Of a stretch of DNA of 64,000 nucleotides, positions 4,561 to 63,300 are shown piece by piece. Each line of letters starts with the position of its first letter. Positions within the stretch are counted from its first letter, which is position 1. The stretch is from Eledone cirrhosa (taxonomy: Eukaryota), in contig OZ024741.1 in assembly GCA_964016885.1 (NCBI GenBank), positions 257,548,001 to 257,612,000 of the forward strand, read 5' to 3'. A program made the position numbers and the translations under genes. The notes below the pieces were generated by a model. That model saw nothing but the letters and a program-made list of their open reading frames with translations, made no database searches and had not been told where the DNA came from.

Positions 4561-4805
4561 ATGGGATTGTCTTTTTTTTTAAATCGCATACTGAAAAGAG
4601 AAAAGATATCTAAATAGATGTGGCTAACAACCACACTTTCAAACGTTCGATCGTTGAAGAGAACAGCCCTCGGAGGTACACTACTTGTATATGTATATGG
4701 GAACTTAAATACTTGAGTAGATACTCATACATATGTGTGTGTAGATGTATATGTATGCCTGTAGGTGTACAAGTATGCATATGCATGTATGTATGTATGC
4801 ATGTA

Positions 4806-8820: not shown

Positions 8821-9355
8821 CTAGCAGTGGTACCCGGCGTTGCACGGGATACAGTATTTTGGAATACAGACCTAATCGTGGAAAAACTGCATGCCTGGAC
8901 AAAATGTCAAGAAAATAAACCGAATACTCTGATGGCTGGATAATCTTTAAGATTTTCCTCGATGAAGCATGAAAAATGGAGGCCCTGGGGGATCAAGAAA
9001 ATGAATTTTTTTATGTGCCTTGAAATTTCGTGAAAATCGGCTAGAAGTAACGCCTCCAAAAAGCCCTAAAAAGCTGAAAAAATGAAGTTTTTCACCTAGG
9101 CCATAAAAAAGTTGGATTTTCTTTGCTCATGGTATGAAGAAGAGACTCACTAATACATAGTTACAATTTAAAGGAAATCGGTCTGACGTAACGCTTCAAA
9201 AAACCCCTAAAAACCTATAAAAACGCAGTTTTTCACCTAATGCGAGCCCTAGGAGATCAAAAAGTTGAATTTTTTATGTGCATAACACTCCCTGAAACAT
9301 AAGTAATACACATGTAAGGTTTGAAAAAATCGGTTGGGTACTTCTCGAGTTTCAT
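8821..9355 (-). mobile_element. Non-autonomous Helitron, 3' end
   Basis: The minus strand ends TCCCGTGCAACGCCGGGTACCACTGCTAG|T, a GC hairpin followed by CTAG before a T. It interrupts a copy of the duplicated intron unit. The far boundary is approximate. Confidence 0.7.
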
Positions 9356-10400
9356 TAGATAAAATATATACCATTTCCTCTCCCAATTAGCAAATTTAAC
9401 CATATAAAAAATCAATTAGACCAAGCTATAAGAATAAAGGCTCCTATGAAGAAATTTCCGACAAATGACCGAAAGCGGCCTCTTTGCGGTGGCCCCGATA
9501 GAGTATTTATCCAACATTTCAACAGCATGTAGAAATTGACTAAATATACCGTCAACCATACACAATTAGGTGTAAATTCAAACTTAGAAGAAATGTGTAC
9601 ATACCGTAATTATATCTCTACCATGGTTTCGTCCGTATATTTAGAGGTTCAGGATATGTCCAGAGTTTCGGACTCATCAGGAGTGAACTCAAAATTAGAC
9701 ATTTAATTTTCCAAAGTTATCGCGCCAAAAATAGATTAAAAAATGGCTAAGAATCGTGATGTGGCAGTGGTCAAGTTAGAAAGAATGTGATTAGTTGCTT
9801 ACGGCGGGTAGGCTTGTTGCTAGAAAGCGCAGCCCAATATCGCCCAATTGTATCTCAACCTAACGGAAGATTATTAAATATAAAGATTTACATATAGATA
9901 AACATAAAGTCATAGATATATATGTGTTTTGCAACTGGTCACGTTGTGGCTCAATGAAGAATTAATAAATTAAATAATCAGAGCAATATATCATAAATCA
10001 TTTCTTTAGAATCATTAGATAAAATATATACCATTTCCTCTGATTATTTAATTTATTAATTCTTCATTGAGCCACAACGTGACCGGTTGCAAAACACATA
10101 TATATCTATGACGTTATGTTTATGTATATGTAAATCTTTATATTTAATAATCTCCCGTTAGGTTGCGATACAATTGGGCGATATTGGGCTACGCTTTCTA
10201 GCAACAAGCCTACCCGCCGTAAGCAACTAATCTCATTCTTTCTAACTTGACCACTGCCACGTCACGATTCTTAGCCATTTTTTAATCTTTTTTTGGCGTG
10301 ATAACTTTGGAAAATTAAATCTCTAATTTTGAGTTCACTTCTGATGAGTCCGAAACTCTGGACATATCCTGTTATTGGACGTCTAAAAATACGGACGATA
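9354..10400. mobile_element. PLE-type pseudo-LTR, partly tandem and inverted (arms about 9650-9983 and 10038-10370)
   Basis: Long inverted repeat, a direct repeat attagataaaatatataccatttcctct at 9354 and 10014, an internal hammerhead, and a homologue at 59090-59610. Confidence 0.7.
9613..9686 (-). ncRNA. Type I hammerhead ribozyme with extended stem II loop
   Basis: cactc-CUGAUGA-GUCCG...CGGAC-GAAA-CCAUGG-UA|gagaua. Stem III is the palindrome ACCAUGGU; stem I has only 3 contiguous base pairs in this copy. Confidence 0.75.
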
Positions 10401-18822: not shown

Positions 18823-19326
18823 AAATGGTATGAGCATAGGCCAGAGGCGGTGATGGAGAACAATCAGGTGAAGGTGCTGTGGGATTTTAGGATACAGACG
18901 GACAAAAAACTGGAACACAATAGACCTGACCTGGTGGTTGTGGACAAAGAAAAAAGATCGTGCCTGATTGTGGATGTGGCCTGCCCGTTCGACACGAGAG
19001 TGCAAGAGAAGGAGAGGGAGAAAATTAACCGATACCAGGACCTAAAGTGGGAGGTGAAAAGGATTTGGAACTGCCATGAAGTCAAAGTGATCCCGATTGT
19101 CATAGGCGCACTGGGGACTATCTCCAAAAGTTTCCAGGGATGGTTAAAGAAAATCGGCCCCTTCACGCTTTTTGGAACGCTTCAAAAGGCATGCTTGCTT
19201 GGAACAGCAAGAACCCTCCGATACGTCCTGAATATCTGAGGCTGCAGGTAGTGGCTTGATATTCAATCCAACGGACTTTCCAGTTAACCAACATCAATGA
19301 CTGAGATTCAAGGAATAACAATAACG

Positions 19327-19330
<4 letters not shown>
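18821..19330 (+). mobile_element. R4/Dong-like family A, short 3' fragment
   Basis: RLE domain (NRPDLVVVD...IVDVACP...EKINRYQDL...IPIVIGALG...YVLNI) plus 3' UTR, flanked by (AAT)n. Confidence 0.9.
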
Positions 19331-19394
<64 letters not shown>

Positions 19395-19397
<3 letters not shown>

Positions 19398-24945: not shown

Positions 24946-25213
24946 ATTTAAGTAACAGCCGTACTAAGCGTGGGAAATGAAATTTCGTTTCATTTTTTCC
25001 GTTTATATATATATATAAAGCATCAGTCATACAAAAGTGAGTTACAAACGAAACGAAATTTAATTTCGTTTCGTTATTTGTTTTTATCGTCTCCGTTGAA
25101 CCGGTACGTACTCACGCTCTATGCAAATTAGTCTGCCCACTACTAATTTTCATAGAAAAAGCATATAACGATATGTGCTTTTACGATTCTCTAGAAAGGC
25201 CGGAAGATAGGTA

Positions 25214-25258
25214 AATATTGCTGATGAGTTGTAACAACAACGAAACTAGTTCAATATT
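25214..25258 (+). ncRNA. Minimal type I hammerhead ribozyme
   Basis: AAUAUUG-CUGAUGA-GUUGU-aaca-ACAAC-GAAA-CUAG-UU|CAAUAUU: 7-bp stem I, 5-bp stem II, palindromic stem III ACUAGU and an intact core. Confidence 0.9.
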
Positions 25259-25534
25259 CCTTGTCTGGCTTTCTGGAGAATAGAGGAAAGGTGTTTCCTC
25301 AAAAACCAGTATGACTCTAAAAACCGGTTTGTCTGTGTGTTTGCATACAGAATAGCTGGACACTCACAGTAAAGTTACCAGTGAAAAACTCGGTACATCT
25401 ACATATGTATACGTGTGTGTATTCATATGCATACTAGTATTTCAGTATACATATGTGGATGTACATTTTTAACTTAATTGTTTAAGCGTCAGTCATACAA
25501 AAGTGAGTTACTCTCTGTCTTGCCTGTTCCCCCT

Positions 25535-35165: not shown

Positions 35166-38100
35166 TTGCATTTATCTTGCTTTATGTTTATACGAGTTAT
35201 CACCAAGTCACAACCAGTGACCTCAAGAGACAACAAGGTCCGCCATGTTCAAGAAAGAACACACATATTCACACATGCATCCTTAGTGTTTAGACTTGTG
35301 ATGTATTTATATTGACAGGATCTTCCTTAGTATATGGGCAGTTCCCATTAGTACTATCTTTTGTATTTCTCCTATACGCGGGTTTCCTGGGATTTGCGAT
35401 AAGTAGTCGTTAGACCCCTTAGGTATCATTCCCAGAGCGCCTACAACCACTGGTATTGTTTTAGTTCTCAATTTCCACATTTTTCCAATTTCTATCTCCA
35501 GGTCCTTATACTTGCTCAATTTTTCAAATGTTTTTATAGATACATTCTTGTCTATTGGAACAGACATATCAATTAGCAGGCATACCCTCCTTTGAAAGTC
35601 CTTCAATATTATATCAGGTCTATTTGCATCTATTTTTCGGTCTGTTTGGATGCTAAAGTTCCACAAGATTGAGATGTGATCTTTTTCAATTATGGGAGGT
35701 GGTTGATGCTCCCACCAATTCTTTTGATGGGGCAGGTCAAAATGCTTACACATTATCCAATGTATGTATTGTGCAGCTCTGTCATGCCTGTTTAGGTATT
35801 CGGTTGGAGCTATAGGACTGCACATTGAAATTATATGGTCAATGGTCTCTGGTTGTTTTTTGCATACACGGCATAATGGGCTGCACCCATTTTTTATTAT
35901 GTTGGCTTGGTAATTTTTTGTTGGCAGACACTGATCTTGTGCGGATATAATCAGTCCTTCAGTCTCCGATTTCAGTCCAGAGGATGCCAACCACTGATGG
36001 GTTAAAGTTTTGTCAACATCAGGATTGTTAGCTCGCTCTGGGTATTTTCCATACAGAGGCTTTTCTTGCCAATTCTTAGCCAGTTTCTGTAGCAGTTCTT
36101 TCTTTGCAGTTACTTTTACCTGCTTTGCTTTTTCTGTGTTTTCCATTTCAGCAGTAAATGGGACTTCTGAAATTTGTAGTCCATTACTGTATCTTTGTGC
36201 ATCTTTTGTAATGGAATATGATCTTTTGGTGCTTTCGTGTTTCAAAACGAGTTTGATCATCCAATCATGTGATTCCCTTAGATATGTGGATAATCCAATT
36301 GTTGCAGTTTTCAACGCAATGTCTAACTGGATTAACCCACGTCCTCCTTCTTTCCTAGGGAGATATATTCTATCTATGTCTGCCTTAGGGTGATGCATTC
36401 TGTGCATGGTTAAGAATTTTCGGATTTTTGTATCGAGCCTACGGATCTCTGTGCTTGACCAGTTGATGACATTGTAACTGTAGGTTACTACTGGTATGGC
36501 AAGCGTGTTTATGGCATCGATCCTATTCCTTGCATTCAATTCCGTTCTTAAGATTGCTCTGACTCTGCGGTAACATTCCTTCCTTATCCTTTCCCTCATT
36601 GTCGAGTGCTTGATTCCGTCTCCTTCACAAACACCTAGATATTTGTAAGTTTGTTCTTGATCAAGCTCTCTTATCACGTTCCCCCGATCAAGATTAATGT
36701 CTGAACTCTTCAGCAGCTTTCCTCTGGTGAACGTTGCTTTGGCGCATTTATCCAGTCCAAACTCCATTTTAATGTCATCACTGAACTGCTTCACAGTGGA
36801 TAATAGCCCTTGCAATTGTTCATCATTTTTTGCAAATAGTTTCAGGTCATCCATGTAGAACAGGTGATTAATGGTTTTGTCATAGACTCTATATCCATGT
36901 TTTGTTTCATTGAGCATTTTACTTAATGGTATAAGTGCGATGCAGAATAAAAGCGGTGATAAAGAGTCACCCTGAAAAATTCCACAATTAATGTTAACTT
37001 CTCCAGCTTCCAGTGATTTTGTTTCACTATTCAAAAGGAGTGTCGTTCTCCATGTCCTCATACTGAATGACAAAAACCTCCTGACAACGGGGGATATTTT
37101 GAAAATCTCTAAACATTTTTCAATCCAACTGTGTGGCAAACTATCAAATGCTTTTTTATAATCTATCCAAGCAATCGATAGATTTTTGTGTCTATTATGA
37201 CAATCTTCCAGTATCATTTTGTTAACCAGAAGCTGATCCTTACAGCCATATGAGCCTCGTTTACACCCTTTCTGCTCAATGGGAAATAGGTCATTTGTTA
37301 TCAGGTGGTCATATGTGTATTCAGTTAGGACTGATGTTAAAATGTTATACATTGTGGTCAAGCAGGTTATCGGTCTGTAATTTTTGGGATTGTTTGTCTC
37401 ATCATTCTTCGGTAGCAGGAATGTAATGCCGTTAACTAGCCATGATGGTATCTTTTCTGGCTCCTTAACTATTTCATTGTAAAGTTGGGCTAACAGCTCA
37501 TGAGACTCTGTGAAGGCATTTATCCAAAAGTTTTGTATTTTGTCTTTTCCTGGGGATTTCCATTTGCTGGTTTTTCTTAGAGCCAAGCGCAGCTGTTCAA
37601 CTGTTATATTTTCCCATGTTTGTTCTTCAAGGTGAGCTGTTTCTTTCATTTGTCTGTCTATCCATGGGGCATGTATGTTATGAACTTTTTCTTCGGCCCA
37701 GATCTTTTCCCAGAATTCTTGCACTTCCTCCTTGGGTGGTATTGATTTAGCAGTTATTGTTGACTTACCAATTTTTCTGTAGAAGTTTCTTTGGTTGTTT
37801 TTGAACATATTATTGTCCTTATAGAATCTAGATCGTTTTTCAAAGCGCCTTATACGAGCAGCTTTGGCCGACACTTTTTGCTTGATTGTTTCTATCAGCA
37901 TGTCTATGTCACATGTTGATCTTATACTGTACTTTTTTTTCAATTTTCTAAGTTTAGTTTGTTTAACATGTTCACCTACTTTATAGTTTGTTAAAATTTC
38001 TATGTCAGATCGGAGAAGGTTTATTTGGCGATTGATGTTATCTTGCCAAGTAGATTTCTTGTGGGAATTCCTTTGTTTTTTCATCTTCACTCCACATAAG

Positions 38101-40051
38101 TGAGTGGTGACTTTAGCCGATGCATAATAGAGATGATTTAAGTCAGTAATGTTTAGTTTGTTTGTGATGATAATGTTTTTGAGAATTATGTTAGTCTTGT
38201 GTATTATCTTTTGGTTCTGTTTGGAGTTCTGGATCTTAGGGAGGGTGTCTCGTTCCTCCATGTCAGATTCTTTCATTTTCATCCATTCGATCATAATTTC
38301 ATCCTTCAAGTTGGCAAGTTCATTCTCATTCATTTCTTTATCATTTACGATCTCATTATTTTCATTTGGAGTTTCATCCTGAGCATGCACTCCCTCCACT
38401 TTTTCGCTCCTTTCTTTAATTTGTTCTGTTGCCAGTGATTCCGCCCCAACTCTGGGATTCGAAGTGTTACAGTTTACCTCGTTTTCACTGACACATGCTT
38501 CATTTTCCCTTCGCTGACTTTGTGCTACTAGCTTGATCTGATCAATTTCTATATCAGTTAGTAACTTTTTTCTTACAATATTTCTTCGTATATTGGCTAG
38601 TTTGTTACTGTCAGTATAGCCTCTGTTTTCGGGATGTTTCTTTTTCCAGTTGATATATGTTTGCTCTGTATTCGATGTATTTGATGGGTAGTACATGGCA
38701 GTGTAGAAAGCCTCAAGGACTTCTTTATTATCTTCCCTTGACCATTTTTCTCTCTTTTTCTTTGGATTTCTTGGTGGTGAGCATGGAGGGCCAACAGTAG
38801 GAGTATTCCGGTTATGGGAGGTCTCCAGCTCCGGAGTGATGGGAAGGTTTGAACCATTAGCTGATTTTTCGACCCCAGTCTGGTTCCTCTCTGAGGGACG
38901 CGGCCCTTTTTTACCCGGGTGACGGCCGATCCGGTATGAGATTTCATCATTAGACATCTACTTTATTTTGTCGCGTTTTATCCTTATCCGCCAAGGGGTA
39001 ATCTTTTCGTGTTACCACTTCTAGAACGAGTGTCAACCAAGACTAGAGGGGTCGTTCTCCCCTAGAGACATGGCTATTCCCCGCCGGCCGCCATCCGGTA
39101 TTTCTTGGTCACGGGGTTTTCTTTTTGTTGTTTTTTTTTTTTTTGTTTTTTTTAAATTGTTATTATCATGAGTGGTTCCTTAATGTGAGCATTGCGTGGC
39201 TTAAGAATGAAATTATTAATAATTGTCTCCACTCCAGGCACAAGGCCAGCAATCACCCAGTGCATTACAATAATATAATATACTTTTTGTTGTAGTTGGC
39301 TGTTATTGTTGCTGGCTATGTCGGTGGTGGTGCCGGGGCTTTTTATATTGTTGGTGAGGAAGGGGTGAGCCAGCAGTCCCATAATTGTTGATGTAGACGT
39401 TTGTCCGTGGCAAGGTCACCAAGTCAATCTATTTATATATTTTGCTAGCCTCTCTCTTGTCTAGTGCTACCACCACCTTCCCTTTTCTCTCTCAAGTTAA
39501 CAGGGGAATAGTGTCAGTAGCATTGAATGAGTGGTGGCGGCGATGATGGATGTGGTGGGGTGGTGGCAGCGGTGGTGTTGTGGTTACTGATATAGTATCT
39601 ATGAGTTTGTGTTCGTATGTTTAATATATATTTTCATTATATTTTGTGTTGACATATTCCCGTAAAATTTGAATTAAACATTTTTTAAAATTTGAGACAA
39701 TAATAATAGTAATTATTATTATGATGCCGGTGAAGTTGCCGTTATATTTAGTGTGATGGGATAGGTAGTGTATCAAGTTTCTGGTGTTGGTGAAATTGAA
39801 ATTGCCGCTGTTCTATATAGTGTAGACAGAGGGTGTTTTGTTCCATTTATAACCATTTTCTTTTTTTGAATACAAAATATATAATACAAAATTGAATATT
39901 TGAGCGATACAACAATATAATATGGATCCGAAACTTTATGGGACCTCATTCGGTGCCTTTATGTAACATTTGTGCTAAGAATTGTTCTTTCACAATTGAT
40001 TTAAATATGTTAAAAATCAAAAAACTTACGGGAGCAATTTCGTGACGTTCT
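35166..40051 (-). mobile_element. R4/Dong-like family B, essentially full-length element
   Basis: About 1.1 kb leader, one intact ORF and about 140 nt of 3' UTR, flanked by (TAT)n tracts. Confidence 0.93.
35307..38957 (-). CDS. 1216-aa RT/CCHC/RLE protein of the family B retrotransposon
   Basis: N-terminal R4-type KWSREDN...AFY motif, YRPITCL, GIFQGDSLSP, FYMDD, CRVC...H...C, NRPDII...IDMSVP...EKLSKY and IPVVVGALG. Confidence 0.95.
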   Translation of the reverse strand: MSNDEISYRIGRHPGKKGPRPSERNQTGVEKSANGSNLPITPELETSHNRNTPTVGPPCSPPRNPKKKREKWSREDNKEVLEAFYTAMYYPSNTSNTEQTYINWKKKHPENRGYTDSNKLANIRRNIVRKKLLTDIEIDQIKLVAQSQRRENEACVSENEVNCNTSNPRVGAESLATEQIKERSEKVEGVHAQDETPNENNEIVNDKEMNENELANLKDEIMIEWMKMKESDMEERDTLPKIQNSKQNQKIIHKTNIILKNIIITNKLNITDLNHLYYASAKVTTHLCGVKMKKQRNSHKKSTWQDNINRQINLLRSDIEILTNYKVGEHVKQTKLRKLKKKYSIRSTCDIDMLIETIKQKVSAKAARIRRFEKRSRFYKDNNMFKNNQRNFYRKIGKSTITAKSIPPKEEVQEFWEKIWAEEKVHNIHAPWIDRQMKETAHLEEQTWENITVEQLRLALRKTSKWKSPGKDKIQNFWINAFTESHELLAQLYNEIVKEPEKIPSWLVNGITFLLPKNDETNNPKNYRPITCLTTMYNILTSVLTEYTYDHLITNDLFPIEQKGCKRGSYGCKDQLLVNKMILEDCHNRHKNLSIAWIDYKKAFDSLPHSWIEKCLEIFKISPVVRRFLSFSMRTWRTTLLLNSETKSLEAGEVNINCGIFQGDSLSPLLFCIALIPLSKMLNETKHGYRVYDKTINHLFYMDDLKLFAKNDEQLQGLLSTVKQFSDDIKMEFGLDKCAKATFTRGKLLKSSDINLDRGNVIRELDQEQTYKYLGVCEGDGIKHSTMRERIRKECYRRVRAILRTELNARNRIDAINTLAIPVVTYSYNVINWSSTEIRRLDTKIRKFLTMHRMHHPKADIDRIYLPRKEGGRGLIQLDIALKTATIGLSTYLRESHDWMIKLVLKHESTKRSYSITKDAQRYSNGLQISEVPFTAEMENTEKAKQVKVTAKKELLQKLAKNWQEKPLYGKYPERANNPDVDKTLTHQWLASSGLKSETEGLIISAQDQCLPTKNYQANIIKNGCSPLCRVCKKQPETIDHIISMCSPIAPTEYLNRHDRAAQYIHWIMCKHFDLPHQKNWWEHQPPPIIEKDHISILWNFSIQTDRKIDANRPDIILKDFQRRVCLLIDMSVPIDKNVSIKTFEKLSKYKDLEIEIGKMWKLRTKTIPVVVGALGMIPKGSNDYLSQIPGNPRIGEIQKIVLMGTAHILRKILSI

Positions 40052-41514: not shown

Positions 41515-44500
41515 TTATTATTGTTATTGTTATTCCTTGAATCTCAGTCATTGATGTTGGTTAACTGGAAAGTCCGTTGGATTGAATATCAAGCCACTAC
41601 CTGCAGCCTCAGATATTCAGGACGTATCGGAGGGTTCTTGCCGTTCCAAGCAAGCATGCCTTTTGAAGCGTTCCAAAAAGCGTGAAGGGGCCGATTTTCT
41701 TTAACCATCCCTGGAAACCTTTGGAGATAGTCCCCAGTGCGCCTATGACAATCGGGATCACTTTGACTTCATGGCAGTTCCAAATCCTTTTCACCTCCCA
41801 CTTTAGGTCCTGGTATCGGTTAATTTTCTCCCTCTCCTTCTCTTGCACTCTCGTGTCGAACGGGCAGGCCACATCCACAATCAGGCACGATCTTTTTTCT
41901 TTGTCCACAACCACCAGGTCAGGTCTATTGTGTTCCAGTTTTTTGTCCGTCTGTATCCTAAAATCCCACAGCACCTTCACCTGACTGTTCTCCATCACCG
42001 CCTCTGGCCTATGCTCATACCATTTCTCAGAATGTGGTAGATTGTTTACTTTGCACAGGTGCCAGTGGATCACCCTGCCCATCACATCGTGTCTCCAGCC
42101 CTTATAGTGGGTCTGGGCTAGGTGTTTACACTCGGACACAATGTGAGCCACAGTCTCCTCTCTCTCTCCACAGATCCTGCACAGTGGGCTAGCCTCCTCC
42201 TTGTAGATATGGTGCTTCAACCACTTCGTTTTGAGGGCCTGCTCCTGCGCAGCCATTAGCATTCCTTCTGTAGCCTTTTTGAGGTCTCCTCTTCTCAACC
42301 AGTTCCATGTCTGTGGATCTCTAAATTCAGTTTTCTCAAAGAAGGTACTATGAAGGGATTTTCCCTTAAGGCTGCTCTTCCTCCTTGATGTTATTTCCTC
42401 CTTGGGTATCCCCTGGCCTACTCTCCCCTCCTTCAGTACAGCTCTGAGCATTGGCTCCTTACTATAGGTCACGTATTTGTATAGGTTGTTTTTCTCCATC
42501 TGAACACAGTCCTCTATGCTGATAAGACCTCTTCCACCCTCAGATCTCCTTAGGTAGAGTCTATCGACATCACTCCTCTTGTGGAACATGTTGTAGATAG
42601 TCAATAGCTTCCTAGTCTTCCTATCCATTTCTTTTTGTTCAGCAACATTCCATCTCAGAATTCCCGCACTGTACCTAATAATAGACACAGCTCGGGAATT
42701 TACTGCGCTTATGGCATTTCTGCTGTTCAGATGTGACTTCAATACGCTCCTTACTCTCCGAATGTATTCAGTTCTTAACAATTCCTTCATTTTTTTGTTC
42801 TTTATGCCATCAGCCTCCAGAACGCCCAAATACTTGTATCCTTCCTCAGAGTCAATTTCCTTTATCATCTCACCTGTTGGTATCTGGATCCCGTTACTTC
42901 TGCTCAACCTACCCCTCCTCATCACAATGACTCCACATTTACCAATACCAAACTGCATACATATATCACTGCTGAAAATACGGACAGTGTCAACAAGCAC
43001 ATCCAACTCCTTCTCACTTTTCCCGAAGAGCTTAAGATCGTCCATGAAGAGGAGGTGATTGATGGTAAGCTCTCCCCTTCCCAACTTGTATCCTGCTCTC
43101 ACTTTTCGCAGCATAATGGTCAAGGGCATCAGGGCAAGGACAAACAACAGAGGGGACAGGCTATCTCCCTGGAAGATACCTCTCTTGATCTTCACGCTTC
43201 CCAAGGATACTCCAGTTGATGTCAACTCTGTCTCCCAGGACCCCATACTCCTGCCCAGCAACTCTCTGATGTTATCTGCCACCCCGAAGATCTCCAGGCT
43301 TTTGGTGATCCAGGAATGAGGCACCATGTCAAATGCCTTTCTGTAGTCTATCCATCCCATGGCAAGATCAGTGTGTCTCCTCCTGCAATTCCCCATTACC
43401 ATCTTATCAATAAGCAACTGGTCCTTTGTACCACGTGACTTCTTTCGGCATCCTTTCTGTTCGTCCGGCAACAAGTTGTTTGTGTGGAGGTGATGGTAGA
43501 TTTCCTCAGACACAATGCTCGTCAACAGTTTCCACATTACGGGCAGACATGTGATAGGTCTATAGTTGGTAACATCATTACCCTTGATTCGGTCTTTCAT
43601 TATCAGAACTGTGGTACCTTTTGTCAACCACTCTGGCACCTCACCCGACACCAAGCAGTCATTGAACATGGCCGTCAGCTTCGGGTGGAGGGATGTTAAA
43701 TGTTTAATCCAATACCCCTGCACACCATCTGGGCCTGGTGATTTCCAGTTGGTTAGTTTTTTGGCTTGCCCCTTAAGAGTTTCAACTGTGATACTCAAAT
43801 CAGTCTGTTGCTGTGCCTGCTCACCGATCTCCCTCTGTACTGTCTCAATCCACCCTGCCTGGGCATTGTGTCTAACATCCTGCTCCCATATTCCTCTCCA
43901 GAATGTTTTAGCTTGTTCCGCCCCAGGGATCAAGTCGGTGCCTCTTTCTTTCCCCTCAAGCTGTCCAAACAGCATCTTCTGGTTGTTGTCGAACATGCGG
44001 TTCTGTTTATACTGACTGACTCTGTTCTCGTATCGCCTGATTTTGGCACTCTTTGCTACAATGCGTTGCTTCAATTCCTCTATGATAATATTTAGCTTTT
44101 TACTCCTAGTTTTGTATTTTATTTCCAGTCTATTTTTAGTGCCTATGTTTTTTAGTGTCCCATTCAGTAGTGACTCAAGCTTTCCTATGTCATTTCTCAT
44201 TTCCCCGATTTGCCCACTCAGTCGCTTCTTCCACCACGGCTCTGCTCTTTCTTGTCTGTTGTTTCCTCTCGCTTTTATACCAAGTAGTTTCCTCACCGTA
44301 TTTGCTGTTGCTTTGAGGATATTGTTGCACTGGTGAAGACTCCTCGCCTCAAGGTATGGGATGACTTTGTTTACCTTAGCTGTTGTTTCTTTTAACTTTT
44401 TCCTGTCTACAAATCTTAGGTTCATAGGTCTCCCACTATCATTGTTCAACTCATCTACCACTAAATTTAGGATGTCAACCGAATCTTGTCCTAGCCCGTC

Positions 44501-46044
44501 AGCATTCATCTCCTCAGTGGCCGTATCTCTGTTCCAGGTATTATTTATCTCAGTATTCAGATCATTGTCTGCTTCGGGTGGTTCCTCCGCTCTCAGGACC
44601 TCCTCACCTTCATTTCCCGCCGGCTCGCTTGTCTGGCATACTACACCCGCCATCTCCAAGCCATTCTCTCTGCTCAGTTCCTCCAGTTCCAGCTCGCTTA
44701 TCCACCCATTAGTTCTTATTACCCGAGCCTGCCCGGCCAATTTTTGTTCATCTAATTTAAATAAACCAATCTCGTTCCAGATGTTATGCATCCGTCTCCT
44801 GTAGCCCCTCTCCTTGGGGTTACTTTTCAGGTAGCATTGCATAACAGTTCTATTCAATTCTTTCGTCCAGTTGGTTCTGGCCCCTTTCCTTCTTCTTCTT
44901 CCTCCAACATCAGCAGTATTTCGTTGACAGTCAGGTTCCTGCTGCTGAGCCAGGGGGCACCTGTTGGGTGAGAGTCTGTCACATGACGTTCTAGTCTCCA
45001 TTTCACCGTTATTCGAACTGTTTATGTTCGATATTTAAACACTCTTATCGAGGATTGGCGAATGTATGTTTACATAGCCATCTGTGGATCCGCCATCCCA
45101 CTTGGCCCTTGTGTGGCATTATCACCACGCTGTATACGGACACACATAAACAAACAAACACACGGGCAGAAAGGGCCCCAAAAATGAATAAGCATAAGTT
45201 TCATTGTAATGTAGTATTCGAATGTCTGACTTAGTTTTTGTTTTTTAAGTTTTACTTTTTCCCCCCTCTTCTCTGTCCGTCCGCCTGCCTCTCTCTTCAT
45301 TCTTATTTTCTTTACGTTTTGGGGGTTTCTTTTTTTGTTTTTGTTTTTCTCTGTTTTTCTCGTTTTTTACTGTTGTTGCTGTGCTGCTTTTGTTGTTTAT
45401 TTTTTCTTTTTTCTTTTGAGTCTATCTATATATTTTGATGCCTTCCTCTTTTTTAGCAGTAGGGATTCTATAATGTGGTGGCAGCAGCCAGCTAAAAGAA
45501 GAAGTGGGAGACTGGCGGCGGTAGCGATACTGAGACAGTGGTGGTGGTGATGTCGATACCGAGGCAGTGGTGGCGGTGATGTGACCGTATTACTGTAGCG
45601 ATGGTGCTGTAGCGGTGGCAGCAGTGAAGGAGTGAAGGGGTGGTGGCGGCGGTGATGGGATAATGGTTGTAATGATGGCCGTAGTGATCGGTGGTGGTTT
45701 AGTGTACACAGGTGATAGGGTGGGTGGCGTATCTAGTTTCTGGTGTTGGTGAGTTTGGCTGTTCTATATAGTGTATACAGAGGAGGAGGGGGGGGGGGGT
45801 TCTTCTTCCATTTATAGCCATTTTCTTTTTTGGATATACAGTGTACAATACAAAGTTGAATATTTGAATATTTGAGCCTTATAACAATATATTTTGGGTC
45901 CGAATTTTTTGGGGCTCAAGCCGGGTGCTTTACGTAGCATTTGTACTAAGAGTTGTTATTTCACAAATGGTTTAAATATGTTAAAAATTCAAAACTTACG
46001 GGAGCGATTTCATGACCTCCGTCACCTCGTGCGTCTTCTTCCCT
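41515..46044 (-). mobile_element. R4/Dong-like family A, full-length element
   Basis: About 1.04 kb leader, intact ORF and short 3' UTR, with (TAT)n on both sides. Confidence 0.93.
41609..45001 (-). CDS. 1130-aa RT/CCHC/RLE protein of the family A retrotransposon
   Basis: WTKELNRTVMQCY...RGYRRRMHNIW...EQKLAGQARVI (R4/Dong N-terminus), RGIFQGDSLSP, FMDD, CCHC and RPD..D..EK. Confidence 0.95.
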   Translation of the reverse strand: METRTSCDRLSPNRCPLAQQQEPDCQRNTADVGGRRRRKGARTNWTKELNRTVMQCYLKSNPKERGYRRRMHNIWNEIGLFKLDEQKLAGQARVIRTNGWISELELEELSRENGLEMAGVVCQTSEPAGNEGEEVLRAEEPPEADNDLNTEINNTWNRDTATEEMNADGLGQDSVDILNLVVDELNNDSGRPMNLRFVDRKKLKETTAKVNKVIPYLEARSLHQCNNILKATANTVRKLLGIKARGNNRQERAEPWWKKRLSGQIGEMRNDIGKLESLLNGTLKNIGTKNRLEIKYKTRSKKLNIIIEELKQRIVAKSAKIRRYENRVSQYKQNRMFDNNQKMLFGQLEGKERGTDLIPGAEQAKTFWRGIWEQDVRHNAQAGWIETVQREIGEQAQQQTDLSITVETLKGQAKKLTNWKSPGPDGVQGYWIKHLTSLHPKLTAMFNDCLVSGEVPEWLTKGTTVLIMKDRIKGNDVTNYRPITCLPVMWKLLTSIVSEEIYHHLHTNNLLPDEQKGCRKKSRGTKDQLLIDKMVMGNCRRRHTDLAMGWIDYRKAFDMVPHSWITKSLEIFGVADNIRELLGRSMGSWETELTSTGVSLGSVKIKRGIFQGDSLSPLLFVLALMPLTIMLRKVRAGYKLGRGELTINHLLFMDDLKLFGKSEKELDVLVDTVRIFSSDICMQFGIGKCGVIVMRRGRLSRSNGIQIPTGEMIKEIDSEEGYKYLGVLEADGIKNKKMKELLRTEYIRRVRSVLKSHLNSRNAISAVNSRAVSIIRYSAGILRWNVAEQKEMDRKTRKLLTIYNMFHKRSDVDRLYLRRSEGGRGLISIEDCVQMEKNNLYKYVTYSKEPMLRAVLKEGRVGQGIPKEEITSRRKSSLKGKSLHSTFFEKTEFRDPQTWNWLRRGDLKKATEGMLMAAQEQALKTKWLKHHIYKEEASPLCRICGEREETVAHIVSECKHLAQTHYKGWRHDVMGRVIHWHLCKVNNLPHSEKWYEHRPEAVMENSQVKVLWDFRIQTDKKLEHNRPDLVVVDKEKRSCLIVDVACPFDTRVQEKEREKINRYQDLKWEVKRIWNCHEVKVIPIVIGALGTISKGFQGWLKKIGPFTLFGTLQKACLLGTARTLRYVLNI

Positions 46045-52677: not shown

Positions 52678-54171
52678 CGAAGTGTGTTTTATAAATTTTG
52701 ACATAACCAAGGGTAATATACCTTAACGGTTCAAGTTTTCCTTGGATAGTGAAGGGATAAGAACAGAAAAGTCAGATATTTCAAATTATTACGATGATTA
52801 TGCAAATGATGTTTAGGTAAAAGGGCTGAAAAAAAAACGTTATTTTAGACGCTATGGAAAATTTAAATAATTATGATAAGTTATTGTATGCGTAGGAAAG
52901 AATAGAATGGAAGAAGAGCTAGCATTAACGTTAATTTGGGGGAAAAAGTGGAATATGATTCCAGAGTTTAAATTTAAATTTATTTACCTATATTATGAGT
53001 TATAATTTTGTATATATAATCAATTAGATTATATGAAGAATTATGGTTGTAAGTATTTTTATCTTATTACAATACGATAGGTTATATGTATAAAAATATC
53101 TATATAGATTAATAATTGCGTATATAGATATTTTTATAGATATTTTAGTATTATAGGGATAGAGATAATTTACAATTATTAGTTGTTTATATATCAAATT
53201 TGAGTTACGAAGGACGTTGATTTTGTATTTTACTTAAAAATAGGTAGTTCAAGTTGTGAGAGTAGAACAATTTGTCGATTCAAAAATGTTGTTCAACATT
53301 GAAAATGTTTTCAGAATATTGTTAATTTAGCGAAGTTATATAGATTATCAAACGTAATATGAGTGTCATTTAAAGATTATCAATCTACATCTAAAAAATA
53401 TATTTAGAGGGATGTCCTTAGAAAAATAATGTCAGAATTAAAAATAATGTCAGAATTAAAATAATTTCAGAATTAAAATATTAAATATATATATTAAAAA
53501 TATTATAAATATTAGAGATATTAAAAAATTTAGAAATATTAAAAATATTTTAAAAATATTAACAATATTAAAAATTTACATTTAAATTTTTAAAAAGGTA
53601 GGATCATTTTGAAGGTGTATAGGAATATTATAAATTAAAAATAGTTCTGAACGTGGAATTTTGGCGATGTCTGCAAGAAGAAAATAATTCTGTTCTGAGA
53701 TTAATAGAGTTTTGACAGTTAATTATATAAACAATTTCTTCGATACACAATTTACAGAATCTTGATAAGGCCACATTTCGGTATGCAGGTGCTTTCGAAA
53801 TCGTTCTCCAAGATATTGAATAGTCTATATTGTTGTCTTTTAAATTCCAAATTAGATATCAATGTGAAGTAGAAGATTTTTTATCAGATCTCTTAAATGT
53901 ATGATTATGGTTATTCCAGCGTTTTTTAAATTTTGTTGAAGTGGCACCAACATAGTTAAACCTTTTGTCTCTAGTGTATTCACTGTGCATTTAAAAACTA
54001 CGTTTTCGTCTAAACAATTATTTTGTAAAGGGCAGTTTGATTTGATTCTACAGTTACATTTACTGGAGTTATTGTTGTGCAGAACGGTACTATTATTCTG
54101 AATATTTTTGTTAGAAATATTATTATTGCTATTTTGGTTAGTTTGGTTAGGGTTTAAATGTAAGTTTCTAT

Positions 54172-54362
54172 TAGTGGATTGGCAGTATTGGTAGAGGGTC
54201 GGACGCCACGCTTTGACGTATAGAGTTACGGGCCTTGCAATTCTGAGTTCAAATCCCGCCAAGGTTAACTTTGCTTTTAATCCTTACGGGATCGATAAAA
54301 TAAAGTACCAGTAATGCACTGGGTAATTGCTGGCCTTGTGCCTAAAGTAGAAACAATTATTA
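54172..54362 (+). mobile_element. SINE family 1 inserted in the PLE ORF
   Basis: A and B boxes and tail present; probable TSD TTCTATT. Confidence 0.85.
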
Positions 54363-55201
54363 ATTCTATTTATATTTTGTGCTATGTTCATTGTAGTAGA
54401 GTAGGATAGTTTTATAGTGTGTCTGTTAAAAATAGAGTGGTATCTGTGGGCTTTAGGAAAACATTTATCTAGTGCTTTAAAGAATAGCTTTGCTAAATGT
54501 GTTTTAACGCTTAATGAGAATGGGAGAGGGTACTAAATAATATTTCTAGTTCTAGTTTTTTTATTTAGTTTTTTTTAAAGTTAATACTAGGATGATATGT
54601 CATGTTATTGTTATCTATGTATTTAATTCTCTTTGAGTATCCTGCTCTAAGTAAAGCTTCATTATAATATTCAGCCTTATCAGCAAAAATATTTTTATTA
54701 GCGGAGATGCCTGAAATCCGTTGTTGGACGCTATTGACAATAGTGTTTTTAAGAATTCTAGGATGATTAGAATTGAAACTTACATAATTTAGATTTTCGT
54801 TAATTTTATGGAATGGATAGTAAAGACCTGTGCTAAGGTTTAAGGTTATATCTAAGAAGTTAACGATTTTGTAGTTATTCTCTATTTCTAAATTAAGATT
54901 GTAGTTGTTGAATAATTGTATTATGTATTTTCTGTTTCTATTAATTTCACTATTTTTATGGTTTTCAATTAAAAGCAACATATCATCACGATATAAACCT
55001 CCGGTCATCTCTGGCATTTTTCTATGCAGTACATTATTAATAAATAATCCAACAAGGTCTGTTAGTTGCGCCGAGTCAGATGATCCCATAGTGATATCAA
55101 AATTGTTTTTTCTGTCGGCTCTTGTCCAGATCTTATCCCTTCATTATCCAAAGAAAACTTGAACCATTAAGGTTATGTCAAAATTCATGAAACACACTTC
55201 G

Positions 55202-56814: not shown

Positions 56815-56984
56815 TATATGTAAAGCTCCTGAAGGGGAAAATGATGAGTAATGACCCTTTTGTACGTCAATAATCACCATTTTTCCATTCAGAGGATTTT
56901 TTAAAAATACCAACTAACAGACTAATTCCATTTATAAGCACATGTTACTACCTATTTTTCAAATTTGCTATATATATATATGCA

Positions 56985-57683
56985 TCACTAATTGACAATG
57001 GAATCCAACGTGCCCTAAAACTCAGTACCCAGAACCTTAGACACCCTAAAGTAAATCAACCGAAACTAAAAGCTCTTCCATACATCTCCACGCACAATCC
57101 CCTCAACAATGAGGCCTTTGACACCATCCTTCAGAACATCCCTGTGTTAAAAAAGGACCATAGAATGAACCAAATCCTTCGAACACACGATATCATAAAG
57201 AGCAAAAGACAATCTAAGTCAAAGAAAAACATCCTAACACATGCCAAAATACTGCCAACCACAACAACGAAACCCGCAGCAAAAAAATGCGATAGACCCA
57301 ACTGTGGCATATGCATCAACCTAATAGAGGGTTCGGAATTCTATTTCAAAGAAGGACAACGTTTTATAGTAAAACACAATTTCACATGCGCATCAGAAAA
57401 TCTAATATATGTATTAACTTGCTCAGGTTGTCGAGAACAATACATAGGCCAGACTAAACACAGCCTCCGCCAAAGCATGACTGTCCATAGATCCCAAATT
57501 AAAATACGGGAATACAGGAAAATACCACTGAGTGAACACATTGATACCTGTGCCGCCCCAAATCATTCCAACTTTAGAATCTTTCCCCTCTACAAATTTA
57601 AAGATAATGCCACCCACACCCAGCGCATCAGCAAGGAATATCACTTTATTAACAAATACGGACCCCGTCTAAACACTTCTTAA
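56985..57683 (+). mobile_element. Penelope-like element 3' fragment with an intact-looking GIY-YIG domain
   Basis: LPYISTHNP...CDRPNCGIC...FTCASENLIYVLTCSGCREQYIGQTKHSLRQSMTVH...EH...KEYHFINKYGPRLN. Confidence 0.88.
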
Positions 57684-58993: not shown

Positions 58994-59055
<62 letters not shown>

Positions 59056-59089
59056 TATAAAGGTTTACATATACATAAAGTTATAGATA

Positions 59090-59610
59090 TATGTTGCAAC
59101 CGGTCACTTTTTGGCTGTATGAAGAATTAATAAATTAAATAATCAGAGCAATATATCATAAATCATGTCCTTAGAATTATTAGATAAAATATATACCATT
59201 TCCTCTCCCAATTAGCATAATTAACCATATAAAAAATCAATTAGACCAAGCTATAAGAATAAAGGCTCTTATGAAGAAATCTCCGACAAATAACCGAAAG
59301 TGGCCTCTTCGCGGTGGCCCCAATAGAGTATTTATCCAACATTTCGACAGCATGTAGAAACTGACTAAATATACCATCAACCATACACAATTAGGTGTAA
59401 ATTCAAACTTAGAAGAAATGTGTACATACCGTAATTATATCTCTACCATGGTTTCATCCGTATTTTTAGACATCCAATTAATAGGAAATGTCCAGAGTTA
59501 GGATTCATCAGGAGATAAACTCAAAATTAGACATTTAGTTTTCCAACGTGATCGCGCCAATATTATATTCAAAAATGGCTAAGAATCTCAATGTGGCAGT
59601 GGTCAAGATA
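59090..59610 (-). mobile_element. PLE-type pseudo-LTR, same family as 9354-10400 but circularly permuted
   Basis: 59090-59205 matches 9925-10040, and 59178-59608 matches 9354-9775. Confidence 0.75.
59438..59517 (-). ncRNA. Type I hammerhead ribozyme
   Basis: UAUCUC-CUGAUGA-AUCC...GGAU-GAAA-CCAUGG-UA|GAGAUA: 6-bp stem I, intact core and palindromic stem III. Confidence 0.85.
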
Positions 59611-60169
59611 GAATGTACATGGGGGGGGTTCTTCCATGTATATGAAGAAATATAAGGCAATAAATGAAGAAAACATAAAATAAATAATAAATAGAGAATA
59701 AAGAATAAATGAAAAATTGGTGAAAAAGTAATGAAAATGAATATGGAGAAGTGAAAAATTAAATGAAGATTCAAATAAAGCAGCATAAAGTGTGTCTGTG
59801 CTATAACCAATCTCAAGGTCAGGAATATGTTGGATAGATTGGTATGAGGAACAAGATGTTAAAATAATAAAAGAATAACACAATCAAACAAAATGTGTTT
59901 GTCTTATAATCAATCTCAACTTAAAAATAAATATAAGGTGATACAGTGAAGAGAACAGAAAACAAATAACAAATTAATAAAGAGAAATCAAGATTTAAAA
60001 TTGAAAATTGAAAATCAGAAATCAAGTAAATTAAAATGTGTTTGTGTTATATAGATGTTGGCCAAATTATAATGGCTGTGTCCGATTCAATCTCTAGGCT
60101 ATCATGGTGTCTGCTCAGCCAGGGTTGTTCCCTATGGCTTGAGGGGAGTTCTCAACCTATGGTGACCTA

Positions 60170-60365
60170 GTATACGGCTGTAGGGTTAAAACCCCCAACT
60201 CTGAACATCTCTACATAGGAGCCACATCAACGAGCTTTAAAGACCGCTGGTACAACCATCGCTATTCATTCAATAAGGAGGCCAAAAGGAAAAGCACGGC
60301 TCTCTCCGACCTGATCTGGAAGCTTAAGCTGGACAGGACCCCGTACTCTCTGGCCTGGTACATAA
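60170..60365 (+). mobile_element. Penelope-like GIY-YIG fragment
   Basis: YIGATSTSFKDRWYNHRYSFNKEAKRKSTALSDLIWKLK...YSLAWYII. Confidence 0.75.
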
Positions 60366-63300
60366 TCAGACGTGGGCAGAAATATGGAACCGAGGCCAGA
60401 GAGCACTCCATGGCCCCATTAAGAAGCGACGACTACACACTCGTCCCAAGTTATTGTGGCCAGAGACTCGTAAAGATCAGGGTGACCCACGTTCCACCGG
60501 CCATCGAAATTCCCTGGCTAATGGCTGCCGTCCTCCCCGGCATCGAGGCCAACATCAAAATAATAGAAATAGCAAAAGAAAAGCAGGAGAACTGGTCCGG
60601 ATCTGGGATGGAGCTCCTGATCGAAGCGGACCAAAAACGCATTGAGGAGATCCCAGAGATAATAGACCTCACTGACAGCAGCAACCTCACCGTAATAGTC
60701 GAGGGTAGAAGGCCTAGGTGTGTCGTTTGTGGTGAAGGAACCTACCTAAGGGCTTTCTGCCCACAGGCTAAAACGTTGAGGCCACCTCTCTTATCCACCC
60801 CAGTCACTCAACCATCAACACCACAAGCAGAAGAAATGGCAGCAACAACTGTAGCAGCAACAACCCCAGCAACAGTAGCAAAACCACCACCACCACCACC
60901 ACCCAACGCGCCAGAACTAGCACCAGCGCCTACACCATCCACCACGCCACAACCAAAACCAACGCCTATGGAGGATTTTCCACTCTCCGACCTATCGCAA
61001 CTGGAGACAGATTGTGACGACGAGGAGTGGGAAACGGTATCAGGAAAAATGAAAAAAAAAGAAAAAGAAGCCAAAAAAGAAAAAAAATCCCCTTCCTTCC
61101 CCCTCCAAAAACAAAATACAGAAGGACACAAATAAACTATCAAACAAAAAAGTTAGGACAGCTATGCCACCATCCACACCAGCATCACCAACCCCATCAC
61201 CACAAACACCAACACCATCACCATCATTAACCCCAACACAACCATTACCAACACCACAAAAGTCATCAAAAAGCGAAACAGAAACAAACTCACATCAAAC
61301 GCAAACAAAACAAAACAACCAAAACGATACACACTACACAGCATTAAATTTGAACAACAACCAACTATTACACTACATCCAGCACAACACCAGCATCACA
61401 GAAAAAGACTACACAACACCCCAAAAGTTCACACCACCTCCACACATACAAATCACTCGCATCACACAGAGAACGTACACGACACTAAAACAAAAATTCC
61501 CCAAAGACATCGGAGACTTCCGACAAGCACTCTCCAGGAGGATTTATAAGGACATCCTTACGGAGGAAGCCACAAGCAGTGAAAAGGATGGAGAAACCAT
61601 CCTTCCTCTACGAGAAGTAAGGTAAGTGGTCTATCCCATCTTTTCCACTCCATTTCAACATGACCTCACTCAGAATAGGCAGCATAAATGAGCGTGGCTT
61701 GGGGTCGTCATGGCGACAGGGCCACCTGCTCAACGACCTGAGGTCACTAAATATAGATGTAGTGGCCATCAGCGAGACCAGAATCTCCGAAGCACGGGTC
61801 TTCGCAAGGATCTTCGGAGGCTACGATGTGTACGCATCTTCCAGCCGTCCTGGATCAGGGGGGGGAGAATTGCTGTGCTTTTTCGGAGAGGTTTGGATCT
61901 CGCCATACGGGCCATCTTCCTGGACACAGTAGGTAAGTTGGTGGTGCTGGACGTGACCAGCGGAGACGGGCCAGCTTTAAGGCTAGTGGCCGTCTATGCC
62001 CCGACAGGAGCAGGGCGGCCTGATTTCTTCCGGCGTCTGGAGACCTTTCTTGGAACGTCCCGCTCTTTAGTGTTAGTGGGCAACTGGAACGGGATCTTAG
62101 ATGCACGCTGGCACTTGTAGGATTAGCGAATAGGGGAAGATGGTGCAATAGCCTCACCAACCTTCTCAGGCGTTTTGAACTGTCTGACAGGTACCGATTG
62201 GATTTCCCGAATGCGCCAATGTGGACTTGGACAAACAGCATCGGGTCATCCAGATCATATCTAGATAGAGTATTTTGTAGGGAAATAGATAGGTCTAGCA
62301 TAGGCTGTCCATAATTAAAGATACTCAGCTACACGAACCACAAATTCGTGATCTGTGTGGTTGACTTAGAATGGCTTCATAGACGAGGACCCGGCTACTG
62401 GAAGCTAAACGCGTCCTTACCAGCGCGCAAGGCCTACAGAGACCGGATTACCGAAATAGTTAAGCGGGCGTTGACGGGGGCCATCGTCAACAACTGAAAA
62501 GAGGGATTAGAATAGAGTCCATTAGGTTTAGTAAGGCTTTAGCAATAGAGAAAAATAGAGCAGAGGGAGAACTAGTTAGAAAATTAGACGAGGCGCTTAG
62601 CAAAGGCATCGCGACCGACGTACTTGCGGCGAAATTGGCCATTGACCAATTCTTCAATGCAAAGCACGAAGGCTGCGTTGTCAGAGCTAGGGTGCGTGCT
62701 CTCAGACACGAGGGGACGAAAGCCGTTCAATGGGCCTGAGTGGCGGAGGAGCGTCGTGGCATCAAAGCCACGATCCGGTCTTTGGTGATCCACGACGGGC
62801 ACATGCTACTCGATCCCGGGAAAATGTGTGAAGCTTTTCAGCGACACTTCGCTCAACTGTTCGGGGGCAGCAGCCGGCCGGATCGGGGGATGGACTTTAG
62901 TGTCTACCTCGACGGACTGCCGCGGCTCTCGGCCACTGAGGCGGAGTTTTGCGAAAAGCCGATAACAGCCGGTGAAGTACGGGAGGCAATGACTGGCTGC
63001 ACAAAGGGTAAATCACCTGGTTTGAATGGTCTGCCTTATGATCTTTATGTACAGATGCTAGACTTGTTCGGTGGCCTCTTGGCGGACGTCTACTGAAACT
63101 GGCAACAGAACGGGAGAATTCCCTGCTCTGTGAGCCGAGGAGCGGTGGCGCTGCTGAGAAAGGATCCGAACAAGGGGGATAACATAGATAATTTCAGGCC
63201 CATAACTCTGCTAAACACAGGGTTCAAGATTTTGGCCAAGGTGTTAGCAAAGAGATTGGTGCTTGTCGTTGGTGGTCTGGTGGGAGAGGCGCAGACATGC

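Follow-up and report, generated by a model that had tools for sequence, protein, structure and literature searches.

A type I hammerhead with a predicted pseudoknot brace and a loosely kept stem II closing pair in a 657-nt non-coding repeat

We analysed a 64,000-nt stretch of DNA (the window) that holds two copies of a hammerhead motif, and we consider it probable that both belong to a protein-free repeat of 657 nt bearing a type I hammerhead whose stem II contains an internal loop, a hairpin and a pseudoknot brace of 4-6 bp, and whose stem II closing pair, 10.1-11.1, is only loosely kept. The core, the family, the pair states of its subfamilies and the anatomy of its insertions are read directly from the sequence. 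A preliminary description had noted that stem II closes with GUCC/GGAC in copy 1 and with AUCC/GGAU in copy 2 and had taken this double change as direct evidence of selection on RNA structure. The double change is real and does fall at hammerhead pair 10.1-11.1; that pair is, however, weak evidence of selection, and better evidence comes from a core whose only repeated variant is at the free position 7 and from predicted pseudoknot strands that are frozen or covarying.

Both window copies are minus-strand type I hammerhead motifs (Table 1), with a CUGANGA core, GAAA, an NUH triplet, stems I-III and an open stem I. Copy 2 (59517-59438, minus strand) reads, in order, UAUCUC of stem I, CUGAUGA, AUCC, a 41-nt insert, GGAU, GAAA, the palindrome ACCAUGGU, GUA and GAGAUA. 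Stem III, made by ACCAUGGU, has 2 bp in a monomer, which forms no hairpin, and 8 bp in a dimer (duplex -11.2 kcal/mol). With a 4-bp stem II, the loop measures 35 nt in copy 1 and 41 nt in copy 2 rather than the 33-37 nt first given. The interval originally described for copy 2 misses the upstream strand of the predicted pseudoknot (59522-59518) by one base, and a third hammerhead, a truncated G-C copy on the plus strand (10331-10398), had been overlooked; it breaks off after the GA of GAAAC, and (TA)n follows. Neither window copy was matched at E <= 1 in an Rfam scan, and single-sequence folds of the two copies were no stabler than shuffles (z 0.39 and 0.43) and did not return the hammerhead fold. 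The sole Rfam hammerhead match in the window was 25203-25274. A separate type I hammerhead with a short stem II and the palindrome ACUAGU lies there (25203-25290, plus strand); it scores 37.7 bits to Rfam HH9, for which the gathering score is 52, and folds as a hammerhead (z -3.8).

Table 1. Features of the two hammerhead-bearing insertions in the window, and the loci of family B
Feature	Position	Strand	Details
Copy 2 of family A (A-U subfamily), 5'-truncated	59052..59613	-	3' end at unit position ~395, into (TA)n
Predicted pseudoknot 5' strand, copy 2	59518..59522	-	GAGUU, directly above stem I; alignment, tree, pattern search
Stem I 5' strand, copy 2	59512..59517	-	UAUCUC, partner of 59443-59438; sequence
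Catalytic core, copy 2	59505..59511 (59511-59505)	-	CUGAUGA; sequence
Stem II 5' strand, copy 2	59501..59504	-	AUCC; flagged position 10.1 is the A at 59504
Predicted pseudoknot 3' strand, copy 2	59495..59499	-	AACUC, 5' side of stem II internal loop
Distal hairpin extending stem II, copy 2	59468..59493	-	GGACAU/AUGUCU + CC/GG
Stem II 3' strand, copy 2	59456..59459	-	GGAU; U at 59456 is position 11.1
GAAA, stem III and GUA triplet, copy 2	59444..59455	-	palindromic stem III ACCAUGGU at 59452-59445
Predicted cut, copy 2	59444/59443	-	from hammerhead rules
Stem I 3' strand, copy 2	59438..59443	-	GAGAUA; sequence
Main arm of copy 1 insertion	9350..10041	-	slightly more than 1 unit; low end approximate
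Copy 1 hammerhead (G-C subfamily)	9613..9690	-	motif at 9686-9613
Core, copy 1	9680-9674	-	
Stem II, copy 1	9673-9670 and 9634-9631	-	GUCC / GGAC
Predicted pseudoknot strands, copy 1	9690-9686 and 9667-9663	-	
Inverted second arm of copy 1 insertion	10035..10398	+	holds third hammerhead, core 10341-10347
Family B loci	L245-L249, L252-L254, L257, L261, L266, L268, L269, L271-L317 (most)		

Over 436 shared bases the two copies are 91% identical, and their global alignment contains 31 substitutions at 427 aligned sites, 17 of them transitions. From this divergence, the chance of a paired transition somewhere in the ~17 stem pairs is about 0.03, and the chance that the 21 bases of core and palindrome stay unchanged is about 0.2. 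The core and the palindrome had been called invariant, and they are so in both copies; with a chance of that size, however, invariance between two copies is uninformative by itself. Pair 10.5-11.5 is G-C in copy 1 versus U·C in copy 2, an uncompensated change; stem I of copy 1 contains an A·A mismatch, and a 7-nt deletion in the insert of copy 1 and of its near-identical twin L032 breaks the distal hairpin. L032 and L001 (G000:C2:261.79-261.83 Mb) are near-identical twins of the window copies, flanks included, about 4.2 Mb away, and represent either a segmental duplication or an uncollapsed haplotype.

In the 3.0-Gb host genome, the repeat of both copies (family A) has thousands of first-look candidates, and its 657-nt unit occurs dispersed, as dimers and in tandem arrays. 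The unit is without a long open frame: across a tandem stretch, many stops interrupt every one of the six frames. Counted from the predicted cut, insertions end at unit position 292 in 99 of 211 cases and at 398 in another 58, in each case running into (TA)n; their 5' ends are scattered along the unit, with no enrichment at the predicted cut site (12/279 within 15 nt, about 13 expected). Inverted segments were found at 107 of 214 loci, a count that includes overlapping loci. One array (G000:C1:92.98-93.02 Mb; L077-L090, L200-L214) has a ~660-nt period and at least 40 units carrying A·A at 10.1-11.1; in a higher-order pattern, these alternate with units in which the 5' strand of stem II is broken. 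Contigs from two of four sequencing runs, of a kind left unrecorded, show many variants and have no bearing on expression.

A tandem non-coding unit with a type I hammerhead defines the non-LTR retrozymes (PMC7229834; bioRxiv 10.64898/2026.07.22.740005), and the non-coding unit, the tandem type I hammerhead units and the dispersed monomers found here agree with that definition. The insertions have fixed 3' ends, are truncated to varying extents at the 5' end, carry inverted 5' copies and target a microsatellite, which are the marks of a non-autonomous Penelope insertion as described for Penelope-like elements (PMC8557442). Judged by its sequence, the repeat is a retrozyme or a non-autonomous Penelope-like element inserted into (TA)n, and it is likely mobilised by Penelope-like enzymes; the earlier assignment of the motif to the Penelope/retrozyme kind of hammerhead is right. 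Its autonomous partner was not found near 244 loci (~1.5 kb per side), where reverse transcriptase (RT) and endonuclease fragments occupied no fixed place, and four loci with a same-strand downstream RT had no common linking sequence. Within the window, RT- or GIY-YIG-like Penelope fragments lie at 54565-55140 (-), 53852-54283 (-), 56874-57683 (+), 4191-4613 (+) and 60143-60380 (+), only the third of which matches Pfam GIY-YIG, below the curated cut-off. The window also holds long frames of non-LTR retrotransposons with RT at 35307-38957 (-), 41609-45034 (-) and 19305-22178 (+), the first encoding 1,216 aa from Met with an RVT_1 match; the C-terminal motif of all three we take to be a restriction-like endonuclease.

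To place the flagged pair in the family, we partitioned the states of positions 10.1 and 11.1 genome-wide with six pattern searches (reversed-pattern controls 0), which required exact CUGAUGA and GAAACCAUGG and so counted neither the CUGAAGA subfamilies (about 8%) nor decayed copies. Among the 1,378 exact-core matches, 285 were G-C and 462 A-U, 19 had G10.1 with a base other than C (12 of them G·U), and 69 had C11.1 with a base other than G, namely A in 65, about 55 of which come from one dispersed A·C subfamily. A pyrimidine faced U in 127 matches, and a non-G base faced a purine in 416 (73 with A and 27 with U among the 100 matches listed). The pair is therefore certainly unpaired in 203 of 1,378 matches and, by extrapolation, in about 500 (A·A, U·U, A·C). 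In 193-copy trees, whether based on all columns or only on the flanks, one G-C/A-U event separates the two states of the window, and there are amplified lineages with A·A, with A·C and, from two origins, with U·U; on branches with at least three leaves, three changes kept the pair and five broke it. This makes 10.1-11.1 the least kept stem pair in family A, although its 11 internal changes on the tree are an inflated count because the loci were sampled by their state at these two columns.

The G-C/A-U change is a master-lineage event. Since both states are inherited by whole subfamilies, they do not reflect copy-by-copy CpG decay, which we rejected as the cause of the A-U state: only 12 of 304 G10.1 copies are G·U, and post-insertion transitions amount to 2.2% at CpG vs. 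1.4-1.6% elsewhere. Independent CpG-type decay, named in the preliminary description as an observation that would count against its claim, is therefore not what happened, and the change is fixed in subfamilies. The copies do lie 50 kb apart, as had been emphasised; they are nevertheless samples of different subfamilies separated by one or two ancestral events, not the result of a local event. A covariation analysis of the kind that had been proposed did not support the flagged pair: in an R-scape-like all-against-all scan of family A (our own code, with parsimony, a G-test, average-product correction and 12 null alignments; 193 copies, 78,606 pairs), no pair was significant, and 10.1-11.1 ranked 3,479th. 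For the loosest pair of the hammerhead, with mismatched subfamilies that amplified and a rank of this order, direct evidence of selection was an overstatement. Compensation at G10.1-C11.1 has already been reported in cricket satellite hammerheads (PMC2837043) and covariation among hammerhead families of Penelope-like elements (PLEs; PMC4209133), and the compensatory change as flagged is ordinary, with precedent.

The core behaves differently from its neighbouring pair. A core-free pattern search gave 1,284 matches (control 17), and among the 99 family A matches listed, scored by eye, CUGANGA is kept in 87 (79 CUGAUGA, 8 CUGAAGA). CUGAAGA, which differs at position 7, recurs on two subfamily backgrounds and is the only repeated core variant among these 99; at the six other core positions, 13 changes in 594 bases are scattered, seven of them hitting A6. 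Other stem II pairs do covary: in an 85-row alignment hand-picked to cover the subfamilies of family A, 10.3-11.3 is C-G in 75 copies and U-A in 8, and 10.5-11.5 is G-C in 62 and U-A in 9.

The long stem II loop, said to differ freely between the copies, does not: ACUC is common to both, and the distal hairpin is conserved in the family, with 90% of cells paired in the 85-copy alignment and 18 changes keeping versus 4 breaking the distal helix on the tree, against a background of 54% keeping. RCUC, on the 5' side of the stem II internal loop, is complementary to GAGY just above stem I, and the two likely form a pseudoknot that braces stems I and II. The variable pair of this predicted helix is U-A in 57, C-G in 19, U·G in 8 and unpaired in 1 of the 85 copies (canonical in 84/85); among the 99 matches listed, from a pattern that permitted all four combinations, we counted U-A 89, U·G 3, C-G 7 and C·A 0. 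On the tree, the pair passes from U-A through U·G to C-G twice, and one subfamily extends the helix with A-U replacing U-A. The six GAG/CUC columns carry 0 internal and 25 terminal changes, compared with 257 and 1,008 in the flanks (Fisher p 0.009); 139 of 284 flank columns are likewise without internal change. Against the helix, its flanking pairs are often unpaired (63/85 and 27/61), and the cognate upstream window falls in the top 5% of partner windows in only 113/197 family A and 18/48 family B copies.

By its predicted helix, family A belongs with the pseudoknot-braced hammerheads. In the all-against-all scan, the pseudoknot pair was not significant (rank 50, E about 216), and some non-pairing columns that changed on the same branches outscored it. 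The top pair, also not significant (E 5.5), joined flank columns 261 and 326, mostly in canonical states (C-G 106, U-A 48), which sit 3' of the hammerhead near a GC-rich hairpin and are possibly part of a larger RNA fold. A duplex-energy swap test between subfamilies parted family A from family B; it did not separate classes cleanly within A, and those of B were untidy. The suggestion that so long a loop may form extra helices or tertiary contacts seems right as to one extra helix, the distal hairpin, and one tertiary contact, the predicted pseudoknot.

Because the pseudoknot was first spotted in family A, only a second family counts as a test. A looser search found family B, which carries the palindrome ACUGCAGU (96 matches, some of them chance hits) and shows no similarity to the family A unit in BLAST. 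It is older (70-85% identity) and about 600 nt long, with a long-stem-II hammerhead arranged as in A. In its 8-nt pseudoknot complement, placed as in family A, 220 of 312 cells are Watson-Crick, a value reached in 1 of 5,000 shuffles (mean 203); with G·U counted, 94 of 5,000 shuffles attain the observed value. Double changes occur at positions 1, 4 and 7; the test used the 39 of 43 copies in which both strands are recognisable, four rows being dropped, and the shuffle ignores relatedness. At 10.1-11.1, family B is most commonly U·U (20/43), with G-C in 12/43. Further long-stem-II families, with the palindromes ACAAUUGU or ACGGCCGU or with another stem II, were seen at L262, L265, L267, L251, L277, L301-L303 and L318.

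We propose that two tandem units would pair their ACCAUGGU palindromes into a stable 8-bp stem III and be cut after GUA, and that GAGY would pair with RCUC and keep stems I and II parallel, a task that usually falls to a loop-loop contact. Where a type II hammerhead lost its pseudoknot, cleavage became 20- to over 100-fold slower (PMC3088659). Reverse transcription would start inside the unit, at AT-rich points matching the (TA)n target, and cross the cut site; as every copy with an intact motif spans the cut site from an internal start, the template would be uncut or re-ligated RNA. Master elements would need an intact core and brace, and a weaker stem II base may cost them little, so that G-C, A-U, U-A, A·C, U·U and A·A lineages could all spread. 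An Anolis Penelope enzyme has an internal RT start and inserts in vitro without need of cleavage (PMC11167929), and U·U at the helix II base does not stop an axolotl hammerhead from cleaving (PMC7229834); this would allow lineages with weakened stem II bases to spread.

The same helix might instead act as an off-switch, in which GAGY/RCUC forms first during transcription, encloses CUGAUGA and delays folding, leaving uncut multimers for RT. Its 3' strand is transcribed about 40 nt ahead of the point at which stem II could be completed, free-energy folding of the window copies prefers nested pairings other than the hammerhead, and all hammerhead-bearing insertions were copied across the cut site. 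The helix nevertheless occupies the stem I-stem II contact site of known hammerheads (5-6 bp of stem I, 4-6 bp of stem II), helices so placed raise activity in tested hammerheads (PMC3088659, PMC10085705), and stems I and II are conserved together with it; we regard an off-switch as improbable. We give about as little credence to a passenger ribozyme whose cleavage no longer matters and whose structure is kept for Penelope protein binding, for RNA stability or through recent descent. It would account for the lack of a significant pair after phylogeny, of an insertion footprint at the cut site and of internal change in many flank columns (the same 139 of 284), and for a GGAA lineage that spreads while its stem II progressively decays; moreover, eight of nine Xenopus retrozyme dimers failed to cleave (bioRxiv 10.64898/2026.07.22.740005). 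Set against this, the core varies only at position 7 among amplified lineages, the pattern expected from catalysis, and the palindromes differ between families yet remain palindromic.

Strong selection on 10.1-11.1 pairing, with the mismatched subfamilies as dying lineages or tandem-array artefacts, seems to us the least probable of these alternatives and is largely refuted as regards amplification. About 63% of matches are canonical, 285 of the 304 with G10.1 have C opposite, there are three Watson-Crick types (G-C, A-U and nominal U-A), and 33 of the 100 non-G/purine matches listed come from one array. However, A·C (about 55 matches, one subfamily) and U·U (127, in two subfamilies) are both dispersed, the A·A lineage is found at about 50 separate sites among the same 100 matches listed, terminal divergence in the mismatch classes (1.5-2.1%) resembles the 1.8% of G-C, and U·U is the commonest state in family B.

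The braced hammerhead with a loosely kept closing pair invites an extension that we offer tentatively and think somewhat unlikely to be right: several unrelated retrozyme families may share an undescribed brace build and use the stem II base as a tuning point through slower cutting. Lineages would repeatedly weaken 10.1-11.1 (from G-C to A·C, U·U and A·A in family A, from G-C to U·U in family B) with core and brace intact, and slower cutting would leave more uncut or multimeric RNA for Penelope-type insertion. If so, the subfamilies would be a natural allelic series with copy-number read-outs for testing what hammerheads do in Penelope-like elements, a role stated to be unclear in PMC8557442. 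A frozen core and predicted brace beside a repeatedly broken closing pair offer natural variants in which cleavage rate could be related to spread. Rfam misses both window copies, and filters against 10.1-11.1 mismatches, as in the methods of PMC3088659, would drop about a third of family A.

Family A resembles the metazoan non-LTR retrozymes (PMC7229834; bioRxiv 10.64898/2026.07.22.740005) in being non-coding, with one type I hammerhead, dispersed and tandem copies, and a 2-bp stem III with a palindromic tetraloop; some of its lineages share U·U at the helix II base with axolotl HHR_Amex2 (PMC7229834). At 657 nt, its unit exceeds the 150-450 nt first described for retrozymes and lies within the 51-972 of the 2026 preprint. 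Unlike those retrozymes, it has 35-41 extra nt in stem II, with an internal loop, a hairpin and a predicted pseudoknot. With the hammerheads of PLEs (PMC4209133) it shares a palindromic helix III for dimer cleavage and many covarying subfamilies per genome. It differs from the min-HHR hammerheads of PLEs in that no flanking RT-endonuclease frame was found; a min-HHR itself (no helix III, an extra base between 9 and 10.1, a conserved G10.1-C11.1) we rejected, as family A has helix III and G-C in only 285 of 1,378 matches. A link to the Naiad elements, suggested by a remark on a 'half core' in PMC8557442, was not supported: the supplement of that paper contains neither the family A nor the family B palindrome motif, and no Naiad open frame could be tied to the family. 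The pDo500 satellite of Dolichopoda (PMC2837043) is also a repeat-borne hammerhead with compensatory G10.1-C11.1 changes; unlike family A, it has a short stem II, and the changes occur in few sequences, not in whole amplified subfamilies.

A helix joining the stem I and stem II periphery also occurs in the non-circularly permuted hammerheads SGC and CSG (PMC10085705). A permuted reading of our copies (SGC, CSG or GCS) was rejected, as both have the C-G-S order of an ordinary type I hammerhead, and nowhere in loop II of family A is there a cleavage site accompanied by matching stems I and III. Reading the supplement of PMC8557442 by eye, we saw the C-S-G order at the 3' ends of two nematode Naiad consensus sequences, with the cleavage triplet and matching stems I and III in loop II and with helices of 9 and 15 bp that connect loop II to the region above stem I, the contact position predicted for family A; a cephalopod Naiad end there has the S-G-C order.

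Pseudoknot braces as such are known in hammerheads. In PMC3088659, where about 40% of representatives carry a pseudoknot, a Watson-Crick helix joins the stem I and stem II periphery as it is predicted to do here, including in the type I human C10orf118 hammerhead; compared with that set, the stem II partner in family A is the internal loop of an extended, hairpin-capped stem II, and stem III is of the dimer type. That study rejected hits with core-adjacent mismatches, and part of its pseudoknot analysis did not include repetitive type I hammerheads. In the literature that we searched (the text of mostly openly accessible papers), we found no type I retrozyme hammerhead whose pseudoknot comes from an internal loop of stem II, and the build is apparently undescribed within that literature. 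A similar layout is seen in atypical type III hammerheads that occur in HDV-like RNAs of toad and termite and in dipteran genomes (PMC7936874), in which a short stem, an internal loop and a ~20-nt hairpin follow one another as here and the 5' side of the internal loop forms 4 bp with the other arm. The two arrangements are mirror images: the type III hammerheads extend helix I and pair with loop II, whereas family A extends helix II and would pair with the helix I side.
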